From the sequence record PP920551.1: a stretch of DNA of 44,983 nt; one strand, given 5' to 3'. Source of the stretch: Escherichia phage KS_S9. A model generated the notes under the pieces. It saw nothing but the letters and a program-made list of their open reading frames with translations, was not told the origin of the DNA and did not search any database. Within the stretch, counting starts at the first letter, position 1. The number at the start of each line of letters is the position of its first letter. Shown piece after piece: positions 25,417 through 39,748 of the stretch. The translations under genes and the position numbers were made by a program.

Positions 25417-25446
25417 AATATAATGCAACCAACCTATTGGTTGCAA
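25417..25446 (-). promoter_or_regulatory. Sigma70-like promoter overlapping perfect palindrome TGCAACCAA-ccta-TTGGTTGCA
   Basis: On minus strand TTGCAA-N18-TATATT; palindrome 25424-25445 straddles the stop of the HAD-like gene; leader hairpin CGGGGC-N6-GCCCCG at 25391-25408. Confidence 0.45.
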
Positions 25447-30312: not shown

Positions 30313-30571
30313 CCAATAAATCGCAGTCGGCTATGTTGTCGATAACGCGAACGTCAGCACCGCGGCGGGCCATTCGCTCATGTTCACGTACCTGGTGCGG
30401 CTTCGGTTTTCCTCCGGGGCGCTTCACTTCGACGAACACTATTTTGCCGTTGATGATAATAATCAGGTCGGGCGCACCTGCGCGCCCCTCCCATGCCAGT
30501 TTTCGGCAGAATCCGCCAACATCTTTCACCCGTCTCATCAGGTGGCTTTGAATCTTGCCTTCTGGTGTCAT
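30293..30571 (-). CDS. VRR-NUC domain nuclease
   Basis: 92 aa from ATG 30571 (TAATG overlap with polymerase stop): GAPDLIII..GKIVFVEVKRPGG..Q matches the VRR-NUC PD-(D/E)xK pattern. Confidence 0.65.
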   Translation of the reverse strand: MTPEGKIQSHLMRRVKDVGGFCRKLAWEGRAGAPDLIIIINGKIVFVEVKRPGGKPKPHQVREHERMARRGADVRVIDNIADCDLLVAELVA

Positions 30572-32862
30572 TACTTCCTGTACCTGTACATAATGTCGCC
30601 TTCGGCGGCAAGTGGGAAGCCTTTCGCCCAAATAGGCAGGTCGCACATCAGCGCGCAAAGCTCCTCTGTCGTGTAGTCGTCGGTGTCCGGCACTTCTGTG
30701 ATCAATTCATCATGCACCGATAGAACGATTTCATAGCCTGCAGCTTCAACGCCAGGCATGGACCAGGCGAGAATATCACGGCACAACGCCTGTACTATGT
30801 TCTCCGTCAGTTTGCCGCCGTAGGTATACTGGAAGCCCCACTGGCGCGTCGTCTGATTCTCGCCCTGATATTTAATGCGTGTGCTGGTGCGCTTCTTGCC
30901 GGTGTCTTCGTCAATCTCGGTAGTGACAGACAGCGCTATGCCGGGGTAGCTCATGATGCGCCCCGACGGCAACTCAATTTTCAACCACCACCCCGCGGCG
31001 TTCGGGTCGTCGCGCTCCTCGTCAAAGGTTGGGTCGTGCTTCGCCTTCGTACGGACAATCTTGAGCGCTTTTCTACCGTCCGGGCGAACGTTCGCACCAG
31101 CCCAGTATGCTTTGCCCGGATTGCGGATTGCACACAACACCGCGTCCTCAAGCTCGGCCCAAAAGGCTACCGTCTTCGGGTGAGCCTCACGCCACATACG
31201 TTTGATCGCGTCACAAGTAAGCCATACGTTTTTCGGCAGTATGTAAGTCGGGCGCTCGTCCTTCTTGCCCGGCTTCGGTGGGCGTTTCGCTTCGTTAATG
31301 CGGGCGTACTCATAACCGCGCTTCGCCGCCGCCCAAATGTGATCCGGGAACGTGCCTTTCATCACGTCCGCCATAGTGTAAAGGTCGAGTCCCAGGTTTT
31401 TAGCGAACTGCAAGAACGCCGCGACGCCGCCACCATAGCCCAGCCCCAATTCGCACGCCTTACCGATCTGGCGCAAGTCTTTGCGGTTGGCTTTAATGTA
31501 GTCCGGGTCCAGGCCGAACATCTTACCGGCAGTCTCACAATAGATATCGCGACCGGCCTTAAACACCATGAGCGCGGTTTTCTCGCCCGCGATCCAGGCA
31601 AGCCCACGCCCTTCCACGTTGGAGTAGTCCGCTACGACAAACTTCTTGCCCTTAGCCGGGATAATGCACCCGCGAACGGTCGAGGCTGTTAGCTTAGATA
31701 TGTCATACGCCCAGTGCGCGGTCCCGCGTAACAGGGAATTGATGCCGTTGGTGAGCATGTGCGTCCGGACCCAAAAAGCAACGTCGCTCTCGCCTTCGCG
31801 GCGCTTAATCTTCCCTTCGTGATCGTCGCTATACTCGCCGCGTGCCAGGTTTTGAGGCTGGAAGCCTTTACCAGCCCAGCGCAGCGTGCGCTTTGCGCCA
31901 CCATACTGAAGACACCCACGGCGGCGACCATCTGCGGATAAGCCGTTAACTAGCGGATTGTACTTAGTCGATGCCGTTGATGACGCACCGAGGCGCATTT
32001 CGATAAGCGCTTTGCCTTCGTCGGGGAAGTCCGGGTCTTCAAGCAGGTCGTTAAGTGTGGATTTCTGCGCGTTGTGGATCGTGAACGCCGGGGCGATATC
32101 ACGCAGGATTGGCAGGAAGTCATTGCCGGTCAGCTTACCGCCAAATCGCTCCCAGGCTTCCTCCTTCAATTCTTCCTTATGCGCCTGCACCGCTTTGATC
32201 GCGGCGTTCGCCAGGTCAACGTCCACATAGAAGCCGCGGTCGTTGATCAACTGGTCAATAAGCAGTATCTCGTCTTCCTTCGGAGTATTACCCCAGTCCG
32301 GTATGCGCCAGTAGACCTCACGCATCGCGATAATATCCAGCGCGGCATATCGCAAGAATTTGGCCCATTCTTCGGGGTGCGTCTCGCGTGTGTAGCGGCG
32401 GATTTTGTAGGTCTTAGGGGTGGGCTTACAGAATCGTTTAATCAGCGCCTTGCCTGCCTTATCCTTCGCGTGCTCTGCGTCAACGCCCAGCACCTGGCAC
32501 TGCATATCGAGGCTACCGGGCAGCGCGTGGCGAAATGCCATAATCATTGTGTCTTCGATCTGGCTTACCGGCAGGTCAATACCCCACTTCTCGCGGATAA
32601 CCAAGCGGTCAAACAGGAGGCCGTTAGCCATCACGATTTTTGCTTTCTTGCGGGATACCTGACGGAGCGCCTTGCGCAGTTCACGCGGCATTGTTGGGGA
32701 TTCAGTGGCATCCCATGTCTGCACGCGGCCCTCGTCGATGGCGTATGTGCAAATCATAATCTCGGTGGTTGGGTGCTCTGCGTAGGCGTACGCCCCTACT
32801 TTCTTCAGGTCCACCCCGCTAAATGTCTCGGTGTCGAGAAACAGACGTTCGAAGTCTTTCAT
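30571..32862 (-). CDS. DNA polymerase, family A (Pol I-like) with 3'-5' exonuclease domain
   Basis: 763 aa; exo motif LFLDTETFSG; pol motif A-like DYSNVEGR, motif B-like RQIGKACELGLGYGGG, motif C VHDE. Confidence 0.9.
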   Translation of the reverse strand: MKDFERLFLDTETFSGVDLKKVGAYAYAEHPTTEIMICTYAIDEGRVQTWDATESPTMPRELRKALRQVSRKKAKIVMANGLLFDRLVIREKWGIDLPVSQIEDTMIMAFRHALPGSLDMQCQVLGVDAEHAKDKAGKALIKRFCKPTPKTYKIRRYTRETHPEEWAKFLRYAALDIIAMREVYWRIPDWGNTPKEDEILLIDQLINDRGFYVDVDLANAAIKAVQAHKEELKEEAWERFGGKLTGNDFLPILRDIAPAFTIHNAQKSTLNDLLEDPDFPDEGKALIEMRLGASSTASTKYNPLVNGLSADGRRRGCLQYGGAKRTLRWAGKGFQPQNLARGEYSDDHEGKIKRREGESDVAFWVRTHMLTNGINSLLRGTAHWAYDISKLTASTVRGCIIPAKGKKFVVADYSNVEGRGLAWIAGEKTALMVFKAGRDIYCETAGKMFGLDPDYIKANRKDLRQIGKACELGLGYGGGVAAFLQFAKNLGLDLYTMADVMKGTFPDHIWAAAKRGYEYARINEAKRPPKPGKKDERPTYILPKNVWLTCDAIKRMWREAHPKTVAFWAELEDAVLCAIRNPGKAYWAGANVRPDGRKALKIVRTKAKHDPTFDEERDDPNAAGWWLKIELPSGRIMSYPGIALSVTTEIDEDTGKKRTSTRIKYQGENQTTRQWGFQYTYGGKLTENIVQALCRDILAWSMPGVEAAGYEIVLSVHDELITEVPDTDDYTTEELCALMCDLPIWAKGFPLAAEGDIMYRYRK

Positions 32863-33087: not shown

Positions 33088-33867
33088 TTAACGGCGGCGT
33101 TTACGTGGCGCTTCGTCTTCGTCGTCGTCCTCATCTTCGTCATCGCGTGGCTTACGACGTTTGCGAGGTTTCTCATCTTCGTCTTCGTCGTCGTCATCGC
33201 GGCGCTTGGATTTTTTGGACTTGCGCGGCTTGTCGTCTTCGTCATCGTCATCACGACGTTTTGACTTTTTGGACTTACGCGGGCTTTCGTCTTCGTCATC
33301 GTTGTCCAGGTCTTCGTCGGAACATGAAGACCCGCCACCTCCGAAGGCTTCGCCGTCTTCACGGAATCGCAGACCCAGCAAGCCAGCCCCGAGACCCTTG
33401 CCGTTGGTGTTGTTCCACGCCCAAATATCCAGCGACACGTTGCAATAACAACCGGAGTAGATCTCCTGGCCTTCGATCTCGTCGCCTTCTACGGTCAGAC
33501 CTTGTTCAGTCTGCTTCTCGCCGAGTGACGTCTGAATGATCGGCTGTTTGAACGATTTGGCGTTGATGTACAACATGCCTTCAAATTCTTCGGTTACTTC
33601 GTCGCGCTCGTCACCGTCGCGAACTGCGCATTCCTTAGAATCCTGGGCGTAGTGACGGTCCATCCACTTATCGGCATTCTTCTCGGATTTCAGCTTATCG
33701 GTGAGCACTGCGCGCGCTGCCGCTTCCACTTTGTCCACCTGCGGATCTTCTTTATCCAGAAGAATAACGGCACGGTATGCCGGTTTTTGACCATCCTGTT
33801 TAGGGGTATCACGTTCCCAAATTTTAAGGAAGCATACGCGCACATTTTTCAGGTTGACTTTAGCCAT
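33088..33867 (-). CDS. Single-stranded DNA-binding protein (DUF2815-like) with repetitive basic/acidic C-terminal tail
   Basis: 259 aa from ATG 33867 (GAGGAA RBS): MAKVNLKNVRV...YINAKS...YSGCY matches the DUF2815 phage SSB pattern; C-terminus has repeats of KPRKSKKSKRRDDDDED. Confidence 0.6.
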   Translation of the reverse strand: MAKVNLKNVRVCFLKIWERDTPKQDGQKPAYRAVILLDKEDPQVDKVEAAARAVLTDKLKSEKNADKWMDRHYAQDSKECAVRDGDERDEVTEEFEGMLYINAKSFKQPIIQTSLGEKQTEQGLTVEGDEIEGQEIYSGCYCNVSLDIWAWNNTNGKGLGAGLLGLRFREDGEAFGGGGSSCSDEDLDNDDEDESPRKSKKSKRRDDDDEDDKPRKSKKSKRRDDDDEDEDEKPRKRRKPRDDEDEDDDEDEAPRKRRR

Positions 33868-33957
33868 TTTCCAATTCCTCATTTTCACATGTATCGGGGT
33901 TATTGGAGGCCACCCCGTTCGGCTTGGTTGCCAATTTACTTGGTTGCGCTTAAGCGG

Positions 33958-34200
33958 TCAAGCATTTTCATTAAAAAGATTTCTGGTCACGTAGTTGGTA
34001 GCGTTCTCGGTCCAGCTTAACGGCGGGCGGTCGATGTTCTTCTCCACCCAATCGACGGCAACTTCGCTATAGCCGTCATCCAGCCAGCGGGTCGGATGGC
34101 GAATCATCCACGCCACCATTAACACGCCTTGCACGCAATGCAGGATAAAGCCCAGCGCTCCGAGCAAAAACATCAATAAGATTGCGAATACTTTATTCAT
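33958..34200 (-). CDS. Small membrane protein
   Basis: 80 aa, GAGGA RBS; N-terminal TM segment FAILLMFLLGALGFILH. Confidence 0.5.
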   Translation of the reverse strand: MNKVFAILLMFLLGALGFILHCVQGVLMVAWMIRHPTRWLDDGYSEVAVDWVEKNIDRPPLSWTENATNYVTRNLFNENA

Positions 34201-35623
34201 TGCTTAAGTCCTCGTCAGTAGCTTCCGACCACGCAGGGCGCGGGTCGTCGATTGGTGCTAACACCGGTTTGGCTGGTGCGCGCGTGATTTTATCACACAG
34301 CTTCGCCCACACTTTCGGTTTTTCGTCCTTCAGTACCTTCTCGGCATCCGTAGGGCTGAGCAATGTTTCTTTGTACATCACATCGCGCTTGATCCGGGCC
34401 TTCGTGAAGATTTCAATAACTTCGCTCTCGTCCGCCCACTTACGGATCCCTTCCTTACCGGCAACCATCTTGAGGCCCAGCGATTCGCCATCGCCCGCCA
34501 TTACCGCTTTGAATACCGCGGACTCGATAGCTTTGATGTGCTGGCGCATTGCGTCCAGGCCTTCATAAGCCTTGCGCAGTTCCGCAGCGCTCATAGCGCC
34601 TGGGGCCGCTTCTTTCTTGCCACGCTTCGCACGTCGTGCCGCTTTGCGGGCTTCGCGGGCCATATTGCGGTCGTGATTGGCGCATTCTTCCTCTGTCGCA
34701 ATACTTACGTCGTCGCCCAGGTCTTCGTCTGTTGCCGTTGGTGGGGTCATCGTGTCGATTGCAGCCTTAGCGCGGGCGCTACACTGATCCGCAAATCTGC
34801 ACCACTGACACGCATCAACGCTCGGTCGGAAGTCGGCACGGGTGAGTCCCTTTTTGCCGCGGGCGTACGCTTCCAGGGCGGCGATAGCACGCTTTGACGC
34901 AAACTTAGCGAATATCTCCAGGGCTTCTACCGAAATATCCCACTCCGACGCCCCGCCGCAATACGGCTGGAAGATAACCAGGCGCACGGTCGTGATGTCG
35001 TACATGGATTGCAGCTTGCGCAGCAGGCCCAGCGCATACAACATAAGCTGTTTGTTTTCTTTCGCCTCGACCTTATGCCGCCCCGTCTTCAGGTCGCCAA
35101 CAATCAGCATGTACGTGCCGTCGGTCTTCTTCATGACCATGACCATATCCGCAGTGCCGAACGTCTTAACCCGGTTGCCGTCGATCTCGAAGCCAGAGTG
35201 TAGGACGCGGGTGAGATCGGCGCGCATCTCAAGCTGAACAAACTCCGCCACTTCGAGGAGCGGTCGCCAGTGGTCGATGTACGCGTCGCACTGTTTCACC
35301 ATGTCGTCGTTGACCAGTACGCCGCCTTTCGGTGCTTTCGGGTGCGCCTTTACCGGCCCCTTACCTTCGTTCTCGACGTAGCACCCTTTGTACGTTTTCG
35401 CGGTTATAAGCTTCTCACCGGCGATAATGCGGTTGAGCACGACTTCCGATACTGTGTGCATACTCGTACCGTTAATAGCCGCTTGCCCGGATTCGTTCGG
35501 GATACCCTGTTCTACCACCAGGGCCGCGGGACACCCCATCCATTTTTTAGCACCGGATGGCCCGAGTAATGAATGTTCCGTATTACTACCGGATTGTGTT
35601 TTGCGCTTCGGTTTAATCGCCAT
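34193..35623 (-). CDS. PD-(D/E)xK exonuclease (DUF2800 / Cas4-RecB-like) with C-terminal Cys cluster
   Basis: 476 aa; N-terminal HSLLGPSGAKKWMGCPAA, and CQWCRFADQC near residue 280 consistent with an Fe-S cluster nuclease of the DUF2800 type. Confidence 0.65.
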   Translation of the reverse strand: MAIKPKRKTQSGSNTEHSLLGPSGAKKWMGCPAALVVEQGIPNESGQAAINGTSMHTVSEVVLNRIIAGEKLITAKTYKGCYVENEGKGPVKAHPKAPKGGVLVNDDMVKQCDAYIDHWRPLLEVAEFVQLEMRADLTRVLHSGFEIDGNRVKTFGTADMVMVMKKTDGTYMLIVGDLKTGRHKVEAKENKQLMLYALGLLRKLQSMYDITTVRLVIFQPYCGGASEWDISVEALEIFAKFASKRAIAALEAYARGKKGLTRADFRPSVDACQWCRFADQCSARAKAAIDTMTPPTATDEDLGDDVSIATEEECANHDRNMAREARKAARRAKRGKKEAAPGAMSAAELRKAYEGLDAMRQHIKAIESAVFKAVMAGDGESLGLKMVAGKEGIRKWADESEVIEIFTKARIKRDVMYKETLLSPTDAEKVLKDEKPKVWAKLCDKITRAPAKPVLAPIDDPRPAWSEATDEDLSNE

Positions 35624-35811
35624 TATTCCACCCTTGAAAATTGAGCAATGTAATAATCGTGTTCAACATTGGCCCGCTTCGCGGCATTGTTCATGGTAGC
35701 CGCCAGTCCTCGAGCTTGCATCCAGCAGCAATTCCAGTTTTGATTCATAACGATTTCTGGTTGCTCGTCGCCGGTGATACGGCAACGAAATAAAACAAAG
35801 AATATAGCCAT
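35623..35811 (-). CDS. Hypothetical protein
   Basis: 62 aa ORF, ATG 35811 adjacent to stop of upstream gene; weak evidence. Confidence 0.3.
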   Translation of the reverse strand: MAIFFVLFRCRITGDEQPEIVMNQNWNCCWMQARGLAATMNNAAKRANVEHDYYIAQFSRVE

Positions 35812-36063
35812 TTATTTTGTCTCCCAGCGGTCAATTGTTTTTGCTTCGGATGCAACTGCGAAGCGAACATATTCAAGATTGGAATCCGCCCAAATATAAA
35901 AGTCGGGGTTAGTAAAGGTGGTGCGCTTAATTTGCGCGGGGGTATTGCGGCGTTTGTCTATTACGGCAACGCGTGACTGAAAGCTGCCGATGCGTTCGAA
36001 TAGCCAATAATAAGGGCGTTGGTCGCGGGAGTCCACCGCCTCGATTAGCGTGAAGCGTGCCAT
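35812..36063 (-). CDS. Hypothetical protein
   Basis: 83 aa, GAGGA RBS, first gene after terminator 36076-36103. Confidence 0.45.
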   Translation of the reverse strand: MARFTLIEAVDSRDQRPYYWLFERIGSFQSRVAVIDKRRNTPAQIKRTTFTNPDFYIWADSNLEYVRFAVASEAKTIDRWETK

Positions 36064-36075
36064 TGTCTCGTCCTC

Positions 36076-36103
36076 TAAAAAGAGGCCCGCAGATTAGCGG
36101 GCC
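36076..36103 (-). terminator. Intrinsic terminator after acidic repeat protein gene (minus strand)
   Basis: Minus strand GGCCCGC-taatct-GCGGGCC followed by TCTTTTT. Confidence 0.5.
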
Positions 36104-36111
36104 GGAATATA

Positions 36112-36741
36112 TTAATCTTCCAGTTCGAAATAGGTTTCGACGATTTCTTTTAAATCTTTGTGGAAGTCTTCAACGTCGTCATCTTCCAGCTTGGCGATTG
36201 ATTTGATTTCGAACGCGTCCAGCAGATCATCAAATTCGTCGTTCGCGTCGTCGTCATCACCGCCTGCGATAATCGCGGCATACTGTTTGATCTCGTCGCG
36301 CATCTCCGCCAGCGGATCGGCATCTTTGTCCAGCAGATCATCAAATTCGTCGTTCGCGTCGTCGTCATCACCGCCTGCGATAATCGCGGCATACTGTTTG
36401 ATCTCGTCGCGCATCTCCGCCAGCGGATCGGCATCTTTCTTGCCTTTGCCTTTTGCCGGTGCTTTTTTAGACTTAGCCGGTTTTTCGGCTTCGGCGTCTT
36501 CGTCGTCGTCATCTTCTACGACTTCTTTTTTGGCCTTACCTTTCGCCGGTGCTTTTTTAGATTTAGCCGGTTTTTCGTCTTCGACTTCATCGTCGTCATC
36601 TTCGACAACTTCTTTTTTGGCCTTAGACGGCTTCTTATCTTCCTGTTTACCAACGGCCGCGCCAACGGTTTCATAATGCTTTGCAATGGTTTCCAGTGCT
36701 ACTACGCCGCGAGTGATCAGGTTTACGATTTGCTCAAACAT
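36112..36741 (-). CDS. Early acidic repeat protein (Lys-rich and poly-Asp/Glu blocks); function unknown
   Basis: 209 aa from ATG 36741 (GGAGA RBS); contains a perfect 37-aa tandem duplication (DADPLAEMRDEIKQYAAIIAGGDDDDANDEFDDLLD) and KPAKSKKAPAKGK repeats; monocistronic. Confidence 0.6.
   Translation of the reverse strand: MFEQIVNLITRGVVALETIAKHYETVGAAVGKQEDKKPSKAKKEVVEDDDDEVEDEKPAKSKKAPAKGKAKKEVVEDDDDEDAEAEKPAKSKKAPAKGKGKKDADPLAEMRDEIKQYAAIIAGGDDDDANDEFDDLLDKDADPLAEMRDEIKQYAAIIAGGDDDDANDEFDDLLDAFEIKSIAKLEDDDVEDFHKDLKEIVETYFELED
36220..36441. repeat. Near-perfect 111-bp tandem duplication inside gene 36112..36741
   Basis: Unit starting CAGCAGATCATCAAATTCGTCG at 36220 repeats at 36331; identical through ...GGCATCTTT. 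Confidence 0.85.
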
Positions 36742-36937
36742 GGTATATCTCCGATTGGTTAAGTTTAGGTGTCGGCAGTTAACTTCGTCGGTGGCCTTAA
36801 CATATTGCCAGGTTACGCGTTCTCCCGTTCGGGTAGTGGACCTGGTTATATAATCACGGTTGGGAATCCTGACACTTCGATCCGGCCCCTGCGTTGCCCC
36901 TCTCCAGTTTGCGTCCTGCATCCTGTCGACGGAGTGA

Positions 36938-36967
36938 ATGATAGATTGGTTGCAGGATGGGTGTCAA
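36938..36967 (-). promoter_or_regulatory. Strong sigma70-like early promoter (leftward)
   Basis: Minus strand TTGACA-N18-TATCAT with GCAACCAAT motif in the spacer; ~190 nt leader to ATG 36741. Confidence 0.5.
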
Positions 36968-36978
36968 CAACTAATTTC

Positions 36979-37012
36979 AAAAAAAAAGCGCCGAGGCAAA
37001 ATGCGACGGCGC
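36979..37012 (-). terminator. Putative orphan terminator-like hairpin (minus strand) in divergent control region
   Basis: GCGCCG...CGGCGC stem with 13-nt loop, followed on the minus strand by nine T; no obvious upstream minus-strand gene. Confidence 0.35.
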
Positions 37013-37143
37013 TAACCAATAAGAGACAATGAGACGGGAATTATTATTACACGCGTGCGCACCCGTTTCAATATCCAAAGGATTTGACACCGTGCAGTTT
37101 TGGGTGTAGTTTCGTTGGTCATTAACCAACTGAGGGCAGAGCA

Positions 37144-37473
37144 ATGAATGTAAACGACGCAATCGAAATGTTAACGAAGACTGTTTGCAGTGAGACAAGC
37201 CGGTCATGGGCATACACCGATGCCGTGGGGGCTGTGTTATTTGAAATCGAACGACTGCGGCTTACCGAAAAAGAATTGCGCGCCCGGCTGGAATTACTCA
37301 ACGGTACGGCGGCCAGCAAGCTGCAAAAGCACAATGAAGAAATGGAAGAATACAAAAAGCAGGTTATCCGTTTGCGCGACGAAGGGAAATCATGGGCGAT
37401 GATTGCAGAGCTAACCGGAATTAATCAGAGCACCGTGCGATCCTGGGTACGCAATAATAAAACCTCTAAGTAA
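37144..37473 (+). CDS. HTH DNA-binding protein (putative transcriptional regulator)
   Basis: 109 aa, GAGGG RBS; C-terminal helix-turn-helix-like segment SWAMIAELTGINQSTVRSWVRN; first gene of rightward unit. Confidence 0.55.
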   Translation: MNVNDAIEMLTKTVCSETSRSWAYTDAVGAVLFEIERLRLTEKELRARLELLNGTAASKLQKHNEEMEEYKKQVIRLRDEGKSWAMIAELTGINQSTVRSWVRNNKTSK

Positions 37474-37483
37474 GGCAACGGCA

Positions 37484-39748
37484 ATGAGCTTAATTAAATT
37501 CGCAGTAACACGACCCGCTAAAAAAGGCGAAAAAGCCAGGGCGGAAAACTACCAGATGACAACCGATGAGTTTTTCGAATTTATCAATGACGCGAAAGAA
37601 ATTTCCTCGGTGCATATCAACAAGACGGAAGATAAAGCCGAGTATGCGCGCCGCAAGCGTAAGGCCGATGGCATCGTGGCTTATACCAGTGATGGGCTGC
37701 GCCGCAAGACCAGTGCCGTGGACCGCTCGATCCTGTTCTTCGATATTGACCGCACCGACACCCGCACCCTGCGCCGCTGCCGTAAGGCGTTCATCGACGC
37801 GGGTCTGGAACACGTATTTCACACCACCACCGGCGACCGCCACCCGCTGAAGGGCGGCACGCGTTGCGCCCGTTTCCTGGTGCTCACTGACAAGCCTGTA
37901 CCGGCTGAAGACCTGGGCCGCGTCCAGTATGCACTATTACACCAACTGGGCCTGTCAGATGTGGACTTCGACGACTGTACAAAAGACACAAACCGCCTTA
38001 TGTACCTGCCACACCAACAGTCTGTTATCAAATGCCATTACGGAAAGCGCGCCCGTGTCCGTCGTCTGCTTCGCCTGGCCGATAAGCTGGGAATGGAAAA
38101 AGAGGAAGTACGCCGCGAACTAACCCAGGGCGATGACGGCGTGGCGGACGGTATTCTGGATTGGTGCTTCCAGGCGGGATTCGAACCGCTGTCGTCCGGT
38201 CGTGGTTATGAAGTGCCGTGCCCAAACGAACACCTGCATAGCGGCGAAGGGTCCACCGCTATCATGGTTAAGGATGGCGAGATCCGTTTCAAGTGTATGC
38301 ACACCGGCAACGAGTGTTGCTCGGAACTGAACAGACACCAGCACCTGGCGCTACGTCTTATCGGGATCCCGGACCACCTGAACGTCGAACCGCACAACAT
38401 GTCACGTAAGCAAATCGCCGCCATCCTCCCAGGACTGGACGACGAGGAAGTGGAATCGTGCTATGCGCATATCGTTGATGCGGTCGGAGACGGCGACGAG
38501 TACGGCGGATGTACGGACGCAGACCTGGACAACGAGCCGGTTGCACTGTTCAGCAAGCACGACCCGATCATCGAGGGGTTGATTAACTTTAAATCGACCT
38601 GGTATCTTGCCGGTGAGTCGAACATCGGTAAGTCGTTCTATGTGCTGGGCCAGATGGCGTCCGTATCTGCCGGTATCCCGTTTGGCGGTGCGAAGGTCGT
38701 CCAGTGCCATAACTTCTATTTCGACGCGGAAGGTGGTGAAGCCTCCAACCAGCGTAAGGAAGCATTGCAGATCAAATATGAGCACGACCTGGACAAGCTG
38801 CACATTATAGACCTGCAATCTCGCGGCTGGGATATCACCAGCAAATCAGGACTGCGTGAAGTTATCAGCTTTATCAATCGCACCGCTAACGGCGAACCGG
38901 TTGGCCTGGTGGCGTTCGACTCACTCAACCAGACTGTTGCGTTGCGGTCCGCCGATGCCAAACCGTTCGACGAGAACAACGCCAGCGATATGGGCGAAGT
39001 TGTCAAGGCGCTGAAGGCCATTGCGGAAAATACAGGCGGCAGTGCGGGCATCATCCACCACCCGGCGAAGGGTGCAAACGGCAGCAGAACGCCACGCGGA
39101 TCTGGCGCGCTTCATGGTGCTGTCGATTCTGCGTTCTTCCTGGAACAGCCGGACGACAACCAGCCAGGCCAATTGAACTTGTATCACGAAAAGGCACGTA
39201 ACGGCATCAAGCAAGCGCCACGAGGCTTCGTCCTGCTCAAGTGCAAGGTTAAGGTGGATCTCCGCAAGTCCGAAGCGTTCGAAGCCCACCAGTCCACCAG
39301 CACCGGGCCTGACTTCGGCGACGTGGTTGCCGGTTGGGACGTCAAGCCGATCGCATCCACGCCACGCGACGAGACTCTCTACCTCGTACCGGTCGCCCTG
39401 GCACCATTCGCCATCGAACAGGCAAAGGCCACTGGCAAAGCAGCAGTTAAGGAAGAGAACGCCGCAGGACCGCGCAACGAAAAAGAGAAAGTGCTTTATG
39501 CGGCACTGGAAAAACTGATGGAAGATAACCCGGACCATACCGGATTCAGTAAATCGGCAATTGTCCGCCAGGCTGGACTTGCGAAAGGTGGCACATCGAC
39601 GAAGGCAATAGACGATATGGTGGAGCGCGGCGTGCTCGGTTTTTATACAGATCCGCACACCGGGGCCATCTATGGGTCGTCGAATATCGTCATCAAAACG
39701 AATATACCCATCACGCTTTCGGCGACCGACGATGACCTGAAAGATTAA
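37484..39748 (+). CDS. Primase-helicase-like replication protein (P-loop NTPase C-terminal domain)
   Basis: 754 aa; Walker A GESNIGKS and Walker B-like GLVAFDSLNQ in C-terminal half; N-terminal half has acidic DxD-containing segments (FFDIDRTD) as in primase domains. Confidence 0.6.
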   Translation: MSLIKFAVTRPAKKGEKARAENYQMTTDEFFEFINDAKEISSVHINKTEDKAEYARRKRKADGIVAYTSDGLRRKTSAVDRSILFFDIDRTDTRTLRRCRKAFIDAGLEHVFHTTTGDRHPLKGGTRCARFLVLTDKPVPAEDLGRVQYALLHQLGLSDVDFDDCTKDTNRLMYLPHQQSVIKCHYGKRARVRRLLRLADKLGMEKEEVRRELTQGDDGVADGILDWCFQAGFEPLSSGRGYEVPCPNEHLHSGEGSTAIMVKDGEIRFKCMHTGNECCSELNRHQHLALRLIGIPDHLNVEPHNMSRKQIAAILPGLDDEEVESCYAHIVDAVGDGDEYGGCTDADLDNEPVALFSKHDPIIEGLINFKSTWYLAGESNIGKSFYVLGQMASVSAGIPFGGAKVVQCHNFYFDAEGGEASNQRKEALQIKYEHDLDKLHIIDLQSRGWDITSKSGLREVISFINRTANGEPVGLVAFDSLNQTVALRSADAKPFDENNASDMGEVVKALKAIAENTGGSAGIIHHPAKGANGSRTPRGSGALHGAVDSAFFLEQPDDNQPGQLNLYHEKARNGIKQAPRGFVLLKCKVKVDLRKSEAFEAHQSTSTGPDFGDVVAGWDVKPIASTPRDETLYLVPVALAPFAIEQAKATGKAAVKEENAAGPRNEKEKVLYAALEKLMEDNPDHTGFSKSAIVRQAGLAKGGTSTKAIDDMVERGVLGFYTDPHTGAIYGSSNIVIKTNIPITLSATDDDLKD

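Follow-up and report, generated by a model that had tools for sequence, protein, structure and literature searches.

Single-stranded DNA-binding proteins (SSBs) such as T7 gp2.5 and Escherichia coli SSB make replisome contacts through their acidic C-termini and disordered linkers. Other acidic phage proteins act against the host: T7 Ocr (gp0.3) is an anti-restriction DNA mimic, rigid and folded throughout, that displays carboxylates like bent B-DNA and whose gene comes first after a strong early promoter of the host type, and lambda Gam and T7 gp5.9 are small, helical, acidic early inhibitors of RecBCD. Here, we compare with these systems a gene of Escherichia phage KS_S9 (record PP920551.1), whose 44,983-nucleotide (nt) sequence, the whole stretch of DNA that was analyzed, is referred to below as the window. 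The gene lies at 36112..36741 on the minus strand and encodes a highly acidic protein of 209 amino acids (aa) that contains an exact duplication; it is preceded by a leader RNA that we compare with the put RNA of phage HK022, a cis-acting, promoter-proximal antiterminator RNA of ~70 nt with two stem-loops (PMC9378689).

A first interpretation of the bare DNA letters (the sequence-only reading) had likened the protein to Ocr and offered an anti-restriction or host-takeover role. From the protein's likeness to an SSB tail, the context of its gene, and the abundance that it shares with SSB, we propose that it is an abundant accessory or adaptor of the replisome or of SSB, with a role in or around the phage replisome, and we give this reading a probability of roughly 0.4. 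The region around the gene matches 175 phage records, nearly all of them from Escherichia siphophages of the genus Dhillonvirus, and the top match is 96.4% identical. Judged by these matches, the window is a Dhillonvirus genome, and its map of open reading frames (ORFs) fits a complete genome of ~45 kb.

A three-part protein family of phages

The coding sequence and its parts are as follows; model confidence is the predicted local distance difference test score (pLDDT).

36112..36741, minus strand: coding sequence of the 209-aa acidic protein (phrog_3127), from the ORF list, with its ATG at 36741 and its stop codon at 36112-36114
36747..36752, minus strand: Shine-Dalgarno sequence GGAGAT, 5 nt 5' of the ATG, read directly and kept in relatives
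36673..36741, minus strand: amphipathic N-terminal helix, residues 1-23, with an AlphaFold2 helix at 2-23
36439..36672, minus strand: predicted disordered charge-block linker, residues 24-101, with pLDDT <50, holding the repeat at 36434..36625
36328..36438, minus strand: duplication copy 1, residues 102-138, extra helices 1 and 2, modeled by AlphaFold2 as two helices with pLDDT 51-68
36217..36327, minus strand: duplication copy 2, the first 37 residues of the C-terminal domain, 100% identical to copy 1
36115..36327, minus strand: canonical acidic three-helix C-terminal domain, residues 139-209, with AlphaFold2 pLDDT 85-95

The gene first called from the letters is a real ORF with a ribosome-binding site, and the strong acidity ascribed to its product is borne out by 66 Asp and Glu and 33 Lys and Arg residues, an isoelectric point of 4.28, and a net charge of about -33. 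An in-frame ATG at 36921 would give a 269-aa ORF with an extension at 36742..36921 that some records annotate; we rejected it as the start because the ~150 nt that hold it are absent from some relatives. The long form is annotated from the upstream ATG in phages EE09, Opt212, PEC9, and Teewinot, where the products have 207-232 aa (in related locus L023, 2813..3511). These upstream-start annotations, whose extension lies inside the leader RNA, are probably wrong.

A hidden Markov model for phrog_3127, annotated as of “unknown function,” matched the protein over its full length (E = 4.2e-62, 210.8 bits), and the match falls in two stretches because of the 111-bp duplication. Named members include EE09 CDS56, TheodorHerzl gp48, and Opt212 gp20. 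A search of 5.8 billion clustered proteins returned 114 homologous clusters, and an exhaustive profile search of 1.84 billion representatives returned only 68 clusters at 50% identity, with proteins of 31-212 aa. With a distant member as the tblastn query, the family turned up in a further 487 phage records, most of them from Salmonella and Escherichia phages, including Kagunavirus. The proteins in these records are annotated as “hypothetical” or, in some Jerseyvirus and Kagunavirus records, as “13.88 kDa late protein”; a search of the literature on the latter label found no functional basis for it. By these searches, phrog_3127 is restricted to phages and is found in Dhillonvirus and Guernseyvirinae.

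Profile searches and structure prediction, which had been suggested as checks on the sequence-only reading, led to no characterized family. Pfam and NCBIfam gave no family match (the best Pfam hit, DUF6669, had an E value of 0.024, below threshold), and a profile search of Protein Data Bank (PDB) sequences gave no matches at E ≤ 10. Foldseek found nothing below E = 0.5 in the PDB, and fold searches returned only generic three-helix or helical bundles.

What the family does have is a constant layout. An alignment of 24 diverse members resolved an N-terminal helix, a charged middle that could not be aligned, and a C-terminal domain of ~68 residues. In the N-terminal segment of ~23 residues, L8, R11, A15, E17, and A20 are invariant; the middle is always rich in Lys/Arg/Ala/Pro and Asp/Glu; and the C-terminal domain carries a conserved acidic motif, GGDDDDxxDEFDDLL. 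AlphaFold2 places the C-terminal helices of the window protein at residues 143-160, 164-176, and 187-205, and a minimal homologue of 115 aa (P0098) has the same layout, with a bundle pLDDT of 82-95 across both AlphaFold2 models. Disorder is predicted for about half of the protein, 87 of whose 209 residues have pLDDT <50. Among Dhillonvirus orthologues, the ratio of nonsynonymous to synonymous polymorphism (pN/pS) is 0.09 in the N-terminal segment and 0.06 in the C-terminal segment, values that show strong purifying selection on both end modules.

The linker is the part that varies. Lys-rich blocks do alternate with Asp/Glu-rich blocks, as first noticed, and they do so because of an imperfect repeat at 36434..36625 (period 90 bp, 2.2 copies, 86% matches in Tandem Repeats Finder). 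The linker spans 43-81 aa in other Dhillonvirus orthologues and ~10-85 aa in the wider family, and 96 Dhillonvirus-type cluster representatives have zero, one, or two acidic blocks in it, in proteins of 115-179 aa. The basic tracts are nearly absent from the short members P0098 and P0068 (122 aa). Because the linker varies in this way and its blocks are almost missing from the 115-aa member, we regard the Lys-rich and acidic blocks as the dispensable, expandable part of the protein; the comparison shows that linker length changes as repeat blocks, an acidic one paired with a basic one, are gained or lost. The window protein thus shares with other phrog_3127 members the same three parts and the same place at the head of the replication operon, whereas at 209 aa it is the longest allele seen among Dhillonvirus-type members (115-179 aa).

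Gene context, abundance, and likeness to SSB

Two signals frame the gene.

36938..36967 (read as 36967..36938), minus strand: sigma-70-type leftward promoter TTGACA-N18-TATCAT, matching 11 of 12 consensus positions
36084..36103, minus strand: intrinsic terminator GGCCCGC-N6-GCGGGCC followed by a T-run, with 7 G-C pairs, kept in relatives

The gene had been placed first behind the strongest-looking promoter, and that promoter is indeed the top sigma-70 match of the window: no other site on either strand of the whole 45 kb reaches 11/12, and its -35 and -10 hexamers are kept across 20 relatives. The claim that the gene has its own terminator likewise held, with the GC-rich hairpin at 36103..36084 ranking first in a terminator scan of 16 kb.

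The Dhillonvirus gene order runs from the acidic gene through small ORFs to a DUF2800/PD-(D/E)XK exonuclease gene, and the acidic gene is divergent from helix-turn-helix (HTH) and primase-helicase genes, the latter at 37484..39748 in the window. Further downstream, the window has a gp2.5-like SSB/annealase gene (33088..33888; phrog_112) and, at 30571..32862, an ORF of 763 aa that occupies the place of the family A polymerase. In three distant relatives (37-60% protein identity), the part of this arrangement that their contigs cover is preserved: two have SSB after the exonuclease, one of these also has the polymerase, and the third has the divergent HTH and primase-helicase genes. These statements on gene context cover the window, the Dhillonvirus records, and the three distant contigs, as distinct from the 487 tblastn records.

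Proteomics of cells infected with phage EE09 detected only four phage proteins at 25 min, CDS56 among them (PMC10673088). CDS56 is EE09_56, the orthologue of the acidic protein, annotated from the wrong upstream ATG, and another of the four, CDS61, is the SSB orthologue by position. The description of the acidic gene as promoter-proximal, strongly expressed, and nonstructural is supported.

In the SSB of the window, acidic and basic blocks alternate along a C-terminal tail of ~75 residues (DDDDEDDKPRKSKKSKRR and similar; 33088..33320, minus strand). Local alignment of this tail with the linker of the acidic protein scored 120, compared with 68.8 ± 8.1 for shuffles, and none of 500 shuffles reached 120; the likeness of the two sequences goes beyond composition. 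The two proteins also share lineage-specific motifs, in distant relatives too, for example, EKPxKSKK in the window and DEPKKKKR in related locus L020. With the tails and linkers of SSBs such as T7 gp2.5 and E. coli SSB, the acidic protein has in common the aromatic/hydrophobic acidic motif DEFDDLL, and it has a disordered charged segment that is similar to the tail found on the gp2.5-like SSB of the phage itself. Unlike SSBs, it has no OB fold, and unlike the motif of SSB tails, its DEFDDLL lies within a domain modeled as a folded three-helix bundle and not at a free C-terminus.

As we picture it, the protein would serve the T7-like machinery for replication and recombination encoded just downstream (DUF2800 exonuclease, gp2.5-like SSB/annealase, and family A polymerase), whose primase-helicase is encoded divergently. 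Each of the two conserved ends would bind a partner, and the blocky charged linker would act as a flexible tether, perhaps allowing electrostatic co-assembly with SSB-coated DNA. The duplication would be recent and probably near-neutral, adding one acidic, DEFDDLL-containing hairpin. Expression would be shaped by a structured leader RNA, by a partial terminator after the gene, and possibly by a small RNA (sRNA) complementary to the ribosome-binding site.

Several points weigh against this proposal. The N-terminal helix is modeled with only moderate confidence (pLDDT 55-75 in the window protein and in the 115-aa homologue). The likeness to the SSB tail could come from shared mutational behavior of GA-rich codon repeats. 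The gene context is circumstantial, and anti-host genes such as lambda gam and T7 5.9 also sit inside replication/recombination operons. Finally, the duplication leaves a hairpin orphaned from its third helix and could be mildly deleterious, not neutral.

Alternative roles of the acidic protein

A host-takeover decoy is the main alternative, a serious one although less probable than the adaptor. In such a role the acidic C-terminal domain, together with the extra hairpin, would mimic nucleic acid or an acidic tail and block a host DNA-binding enzyme early in infection. By analogy to lambda Gam and T7 gp5.9, RecBCD would be the most plausible target; a restriction enzyme or another defense nuclease, as for Ocr, would be less plausible. 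Lying first behind the strongest promoter and having its own terminator, the gene should be made early and in large amounts, and its orthologue is abundant in EE09-infected cells. The net charge of the protein and the conservation of its GGDDDDxxDEFDDLL motif also suit a decoy, as does the position of the gene upstream of exonuclease and SSB/annealase genes, which recalls lambda, where gam lies upstream of bet and exo. Like Gam and gp5.9, the protein is a small, helical, acidic, early product encoded beside exonuclease and annealase/SSB genes. Linear DNA ends need protection from RecBCD. It counts for a decoy that Dhillonviruses inject linear DNA with cohesive ends (PMC10673088).

Other observations speak against a decoy. 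The protein has no sequence or fold likeness to Ocr, ArdA, Gam, or any solved inhibitor; neither it nor its HTH neighbor matches Pfam Gam, and solved structures match it as generic bundles only. The gene occurs throughout Dhillonvirus and in many Guernseyvirinae records, unlike many anti-defense genes, which are patchy and fast evolving, and the pN/pS of 0.06-0.09 indicates a stable partner. Simple DNA mimicry would also leave the conserved hydrophobic N-terminal helix unexplained.

The analogy to Ocr in particular is not supported. The acidic protein resembles Ocr in being very acidic and in being encoded first behind a strong early host-type promoter, its early timing being inferred. It differs in matching neither the Pfam Ocr family nor the Ocr fold in the PDB search and, where Ocr is rigid and all folded, in having 87 of its 209 residues at pLDDT <50 and basic blocks in its linker. 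Its gene is embedded in, and heads, a replication module. In the BASEL collection, Dhillonvirus and Drexlerviridae phages were sensitive to type I and type II restriction-modification, in contrast with the resistant Queuovirinae (PMC8594841); this comparative sensitivity argues, indirectly, against an anti-restriction protein and against a decoy for restriction enzymes.

A DNA- or RNA-binding, histone-like, or nucleoid-associated protein, in which Lys/Ala/Pro tracts would bind and acidic blocks would moderate binding, is improbable to our minds. It would account for the KPAKSKKAPAKGKAKK tracts of the linker, for the AT-hook-like RGRGRP-, GRRSRTR-, and KRTR-type tracts that distant homologues have at the same position, and for a weak Pfam match of one member to the HC2 histone-like nucleoprotein family (E = 0.01). 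However, the basic tracts are in the least conserved part of the protein and are almost gone from P0098 and P0068, the overall charge is strongly negative, and the conserved modules are a hydrophobic helix and an acidic bundle instead of the basic tracts.

Published factors and phenotypes of these phages were also considered, and each belongs to a different gene. The Dhillonvirus anti-Tmn factor corresponds to ORF35, whose product has a beta-sheet; Ksap1 (74 aa) comes from a gene flanked by those for a methyltransferase and a phosphatase; RAZR is triggered by the portal protein; and the Retron-Eco8 and Borvo escape mutations are in SSB and polymerase. The retron paper makes no statement on inhibition of RecBCD by Dhillonviruses.

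The 111-bp duplication

Tandem Repeats Finder confirmed the exact duplication first seen by eye, a perfect repeat at 36217..36438 (period 111, 2.0 copies, 100% matches, score 444). It is in frame (111 = 37 × 3), so that residues 102-138 recur exactly as residues 139-175 (KDADPLAEMRDEIKQYAAIIAGGDDDDANDEFDDLLD). In the AlphaFold2 model, copy 2 and the original third helix form the confident bundle, and copy 1 forms a two-helix hairpin of lower confidence. The junction shows no microhomology.

Repeat copy number among related isolates, a comparison that the sequence-only reading had suggested, was one in the relatives compared and two in the window. The duplication is absent from 19 of 19 related loci. 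A junction-spanning query against 50,697 phage records found no contiguous junction among the best matches listed, every one of which splits in two and maps to the two ends of one unit. The 96 Dhillonvirus-type cluster representatives all lack a second copy of the module, and the exact window protein is absent from a collection of ~15 billion proteins. We read the duplication as a very recent, private event, in line with the recent origin first suggested for it: the copies are identical, and no relative examined has both. The accompanying idea of a length-variable locus stands for the linker, with its zero, one, or two acidic blocks, and falls for the 111-bp unit.

Three distant members (P0115, P0117, and P0127; 208-212 aa) have two complete, diverged C-terminal domains, so tandem copies of the domain have arisen and persisted before. 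It is very improbable that the duplication is an assembly or consensus artefact or a damaged allele from laboratory passage, because, although it is a singleton among all relatives examined, its copies are perfectly identical (and hence very young), and it splits a conserved domain to leave a low-confidence hairpin without a third helix, it is exactly in frame and retains every conserved residue, natural two-domain family members exist, and assemblers usually collapse short tandem repeats and do not create them.

Transcription of the downstream genes

The next genes on the minus strand are an 83-aa ORF (35812..36063), a 62-aa ORF (35623..35811), and the 476-aa DUF2800 PD-(D/E)XK nuclease (34193..35623). 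Between the terminator and these genes, we found no promoter match above 9/12, which is the chance level. The term “monocistronic,” first applied to the acidic gene, goes beyond this evidence: because no above-chance promoter match precedes them, the downstream genes probably depend on read-through of the terminator. The promoter scan also returned a site at 33961..33933, ahead of the SSB gene, which may therefore have a promoter of its own. In related phages, the mutations of published Retron-Eco8 escape mutants are located in the SSB “promoter or coding sequence.”

The terminator itself shows an unusual kind of variation. Its stem, GGCCCGC/GCGGGCC, is the same in related loci L001 and L003, and its 6-nt loop is the reverse complement of theirs (TAATCT versus AGATTA); it looks as if the whole palindromic hairpin has been inverted relative to these two loci. 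Phage PTXU06 (L002, 1813..1926) has an extra 37-codon ORF, MDYEMRIMLDFIAENWAAFTAFCEERGDDPDEVYRQLGGED, an insertion that follows the stop codon of the acidic gene, precedes the terminator, and is flanked by a direct repeat of GAAGATTAATAT. Judged by match lengths, phages TH11 and TH13 probably carry the same extra ORF.

A structured leader RNA

The promoter is separated from the start codon of the acidic gene by 190 nt, which hold one further feature.

36763..36933, minus strand: structured leader RNA of ~165 nt, lying between promoter and ribosome-binding site, with a covariance-model match at 36772..36930

The leader occurs in 171 phage records, 74 of which have it at 99% identity or more; where present, it is conserved more than the adjacent coding sequence. 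In four Dhillonvirus loci, a block of ~150 nt is replaced by ~12 nt. Dhillonvirus shares the element with several Drexlerviridae genera, Sortsnevirus, and BUCT618-like phages; its carriers in other genera include Changchunvirus PHB17, Warwickvirus JK16, Klebsiella phage KMI8, Sortsnevirus sortkaff, and phage BUCT618. In those phages its neighbors on both sides are co-directional genes, the start codon of the next one falls 10-40 nt past its end, and the genes that follow it are mutually unrelated. Read by eye, these sequences have a -10-like hexamer a few nucleotides ahead of the element; the promoter scan gave an 11/12 promoter in BUCT618 and none in sortkaff. Each genome or locus examined has one copy. 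Pattern scans added 14 stretches from metagenomes, mostly on contigs of 39-52 kb, and, from a genome collection, a single contig of 42.8 kb.

Manual tracing revealed closing and internal helices that differ in sequence between lineages and stay complementary. After covariance-model realignment, 86.7% of cells pair, compared with 69.7% in shuffles, and 20 of 34 pairs change on both sides. The covariation score was 0.428, compared with 0.165 for shuffles (0/500 reached the observed value) and at most 0.078 when partners were slid by 1-3 columns. On the transcribed strand G-U pairs are common, as expected if the RNA is read in the same direction as the gene. The structure is visible only by manual helix tracing and covariance-model realignment: single-sequence folding of the leader gave no signal (z = +0.92), and RNAalifold on a MAFFT alignment recovered few helices. 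Rfam 15 had no match to the leader; the sole overlap was on the opposite strand, to DUF2693-FD, at 20.3 bits (gathering threshold, 44.5; E = 0.27). Five loci of other genera had no Rfam match at E ≤ 0.1, and a literature search for the core sequence found nothing. On this comparative evidence, the leader is a well-supported covarying structured RNA that matches no described family.

Like HK022 put RNA, the leader is structured and starts a few nucleotides after an early sigma-70 promoter, and in Dhillonvirus it is followed by a strong terminator and then by genes with no evident promoter of their own. It is unlike put in size and layout, with ~165 nt and seven helices instead of ~70 nt and two stem-loops. 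The terminator after the acidic gene makes a put-like antitermination role attractive in Dhillonvirus. By analogy to put, such a role is nevertheless speculative, because BUCT618 and sortkaff have no internal terminator after the element; some Dhillonviruses also lack the element.

A candidate small RNA and the divergent control region

The divergent control region holds one more putative transcription unit, directly upstream of the leftward promoter.

36978..37071, minus strand: candidate sRNA unit, with a promoter-like site and a hairpin

The promoter-like site, TTGAAA-N17-(TG)AATAAT at 37071..37043, is a 10/12 match with an upstream TG. It is followed by ~20 unpaired nt, a terminator hairpin at 37013..36987, and T9, for a predicted RNA of 55-60 nt. 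The unit is fully conserved across 20 relatives; its hairpin survives two compensatory changes in related locus L019 and, in the divergent locus L022, is formed by an entirely different stem. In all three lineages tested, the 5' part of the RNA has complementarity to the Shine-Dalgarno sequence and start of the acidic gene (36748..36761 plus its first codons), with pairing energies of -14.1 kcal/mol in the window and -13.8 and -21.1 (L022) kcal/mol in the others, reached by 39, 54, and 1 per 1,000 shuffles, respectively. The sRNA possibly sets expression of the acidic gene through its ribosome-binding site.

A DNA operator is an alternative to sRNA pairing, because three of the six TTGGTTA sites in the genome cluster in the 400-bp divergent control region (36755, 37013, and 37123; a variant is at 36946). 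One of these sites forms a palindrome, GTTGGTtaatgACCAAC, just upstream of the HTH gene, and a related perfect palindrome, TGCAACCAAcctaTTGGTTGCA, at 25424..25445 overlaps a promoter-like site at 25.4 kb. The TTGGTTA sites and palindromes may be operators for the HTH protein. That neighbor (37144..37473, plus strand, 109 aa) is labeled “DNA recombination nuclease inhibitor Gamma,” “transposase,” or “resolvase” across records. It matches only HTH models, of the HTH_23 and sigma-70 region 4 types, and the Gam label therefore looks like a propagated error.

Taken jointly with our proposal for the protein, the leader would be a new class of cis-acting phage RNA, acting on RNA polymerase, the ribosome, or a ligand, and together with the 55-60-nt sRNA would set the dose of a charge-block protein that co-assembles with the gp2.5-like SSB at replication sites. 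We regard this combined scheme as doubtful.

Implications

The phrog_3127 family spans phages of the BASEL collection and phage-therapy candidates, and in infected cells the acidic protein ranks with the most abundant products of the phage. Its placement with the replication module, and not filing it as Ocr-like, redirects the experiments to be done, and the private duplication in KS_S9 provides a natural allele that bears on whether the copy number of the acidic module matters. The analysis also corrects recurrent annotation errors, namely, the upstream start codon of the acidic gene and the “Gam,” “transposase,” and “resolvase” labels on the HTH gene. Within the interval, novelty lies chiefly in the structured leader RNA and, with less certainty, in the candidate sRNA. 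Several phage genera have the leader at early or intergenic positions, and it may reveal a general control of early transcripts.

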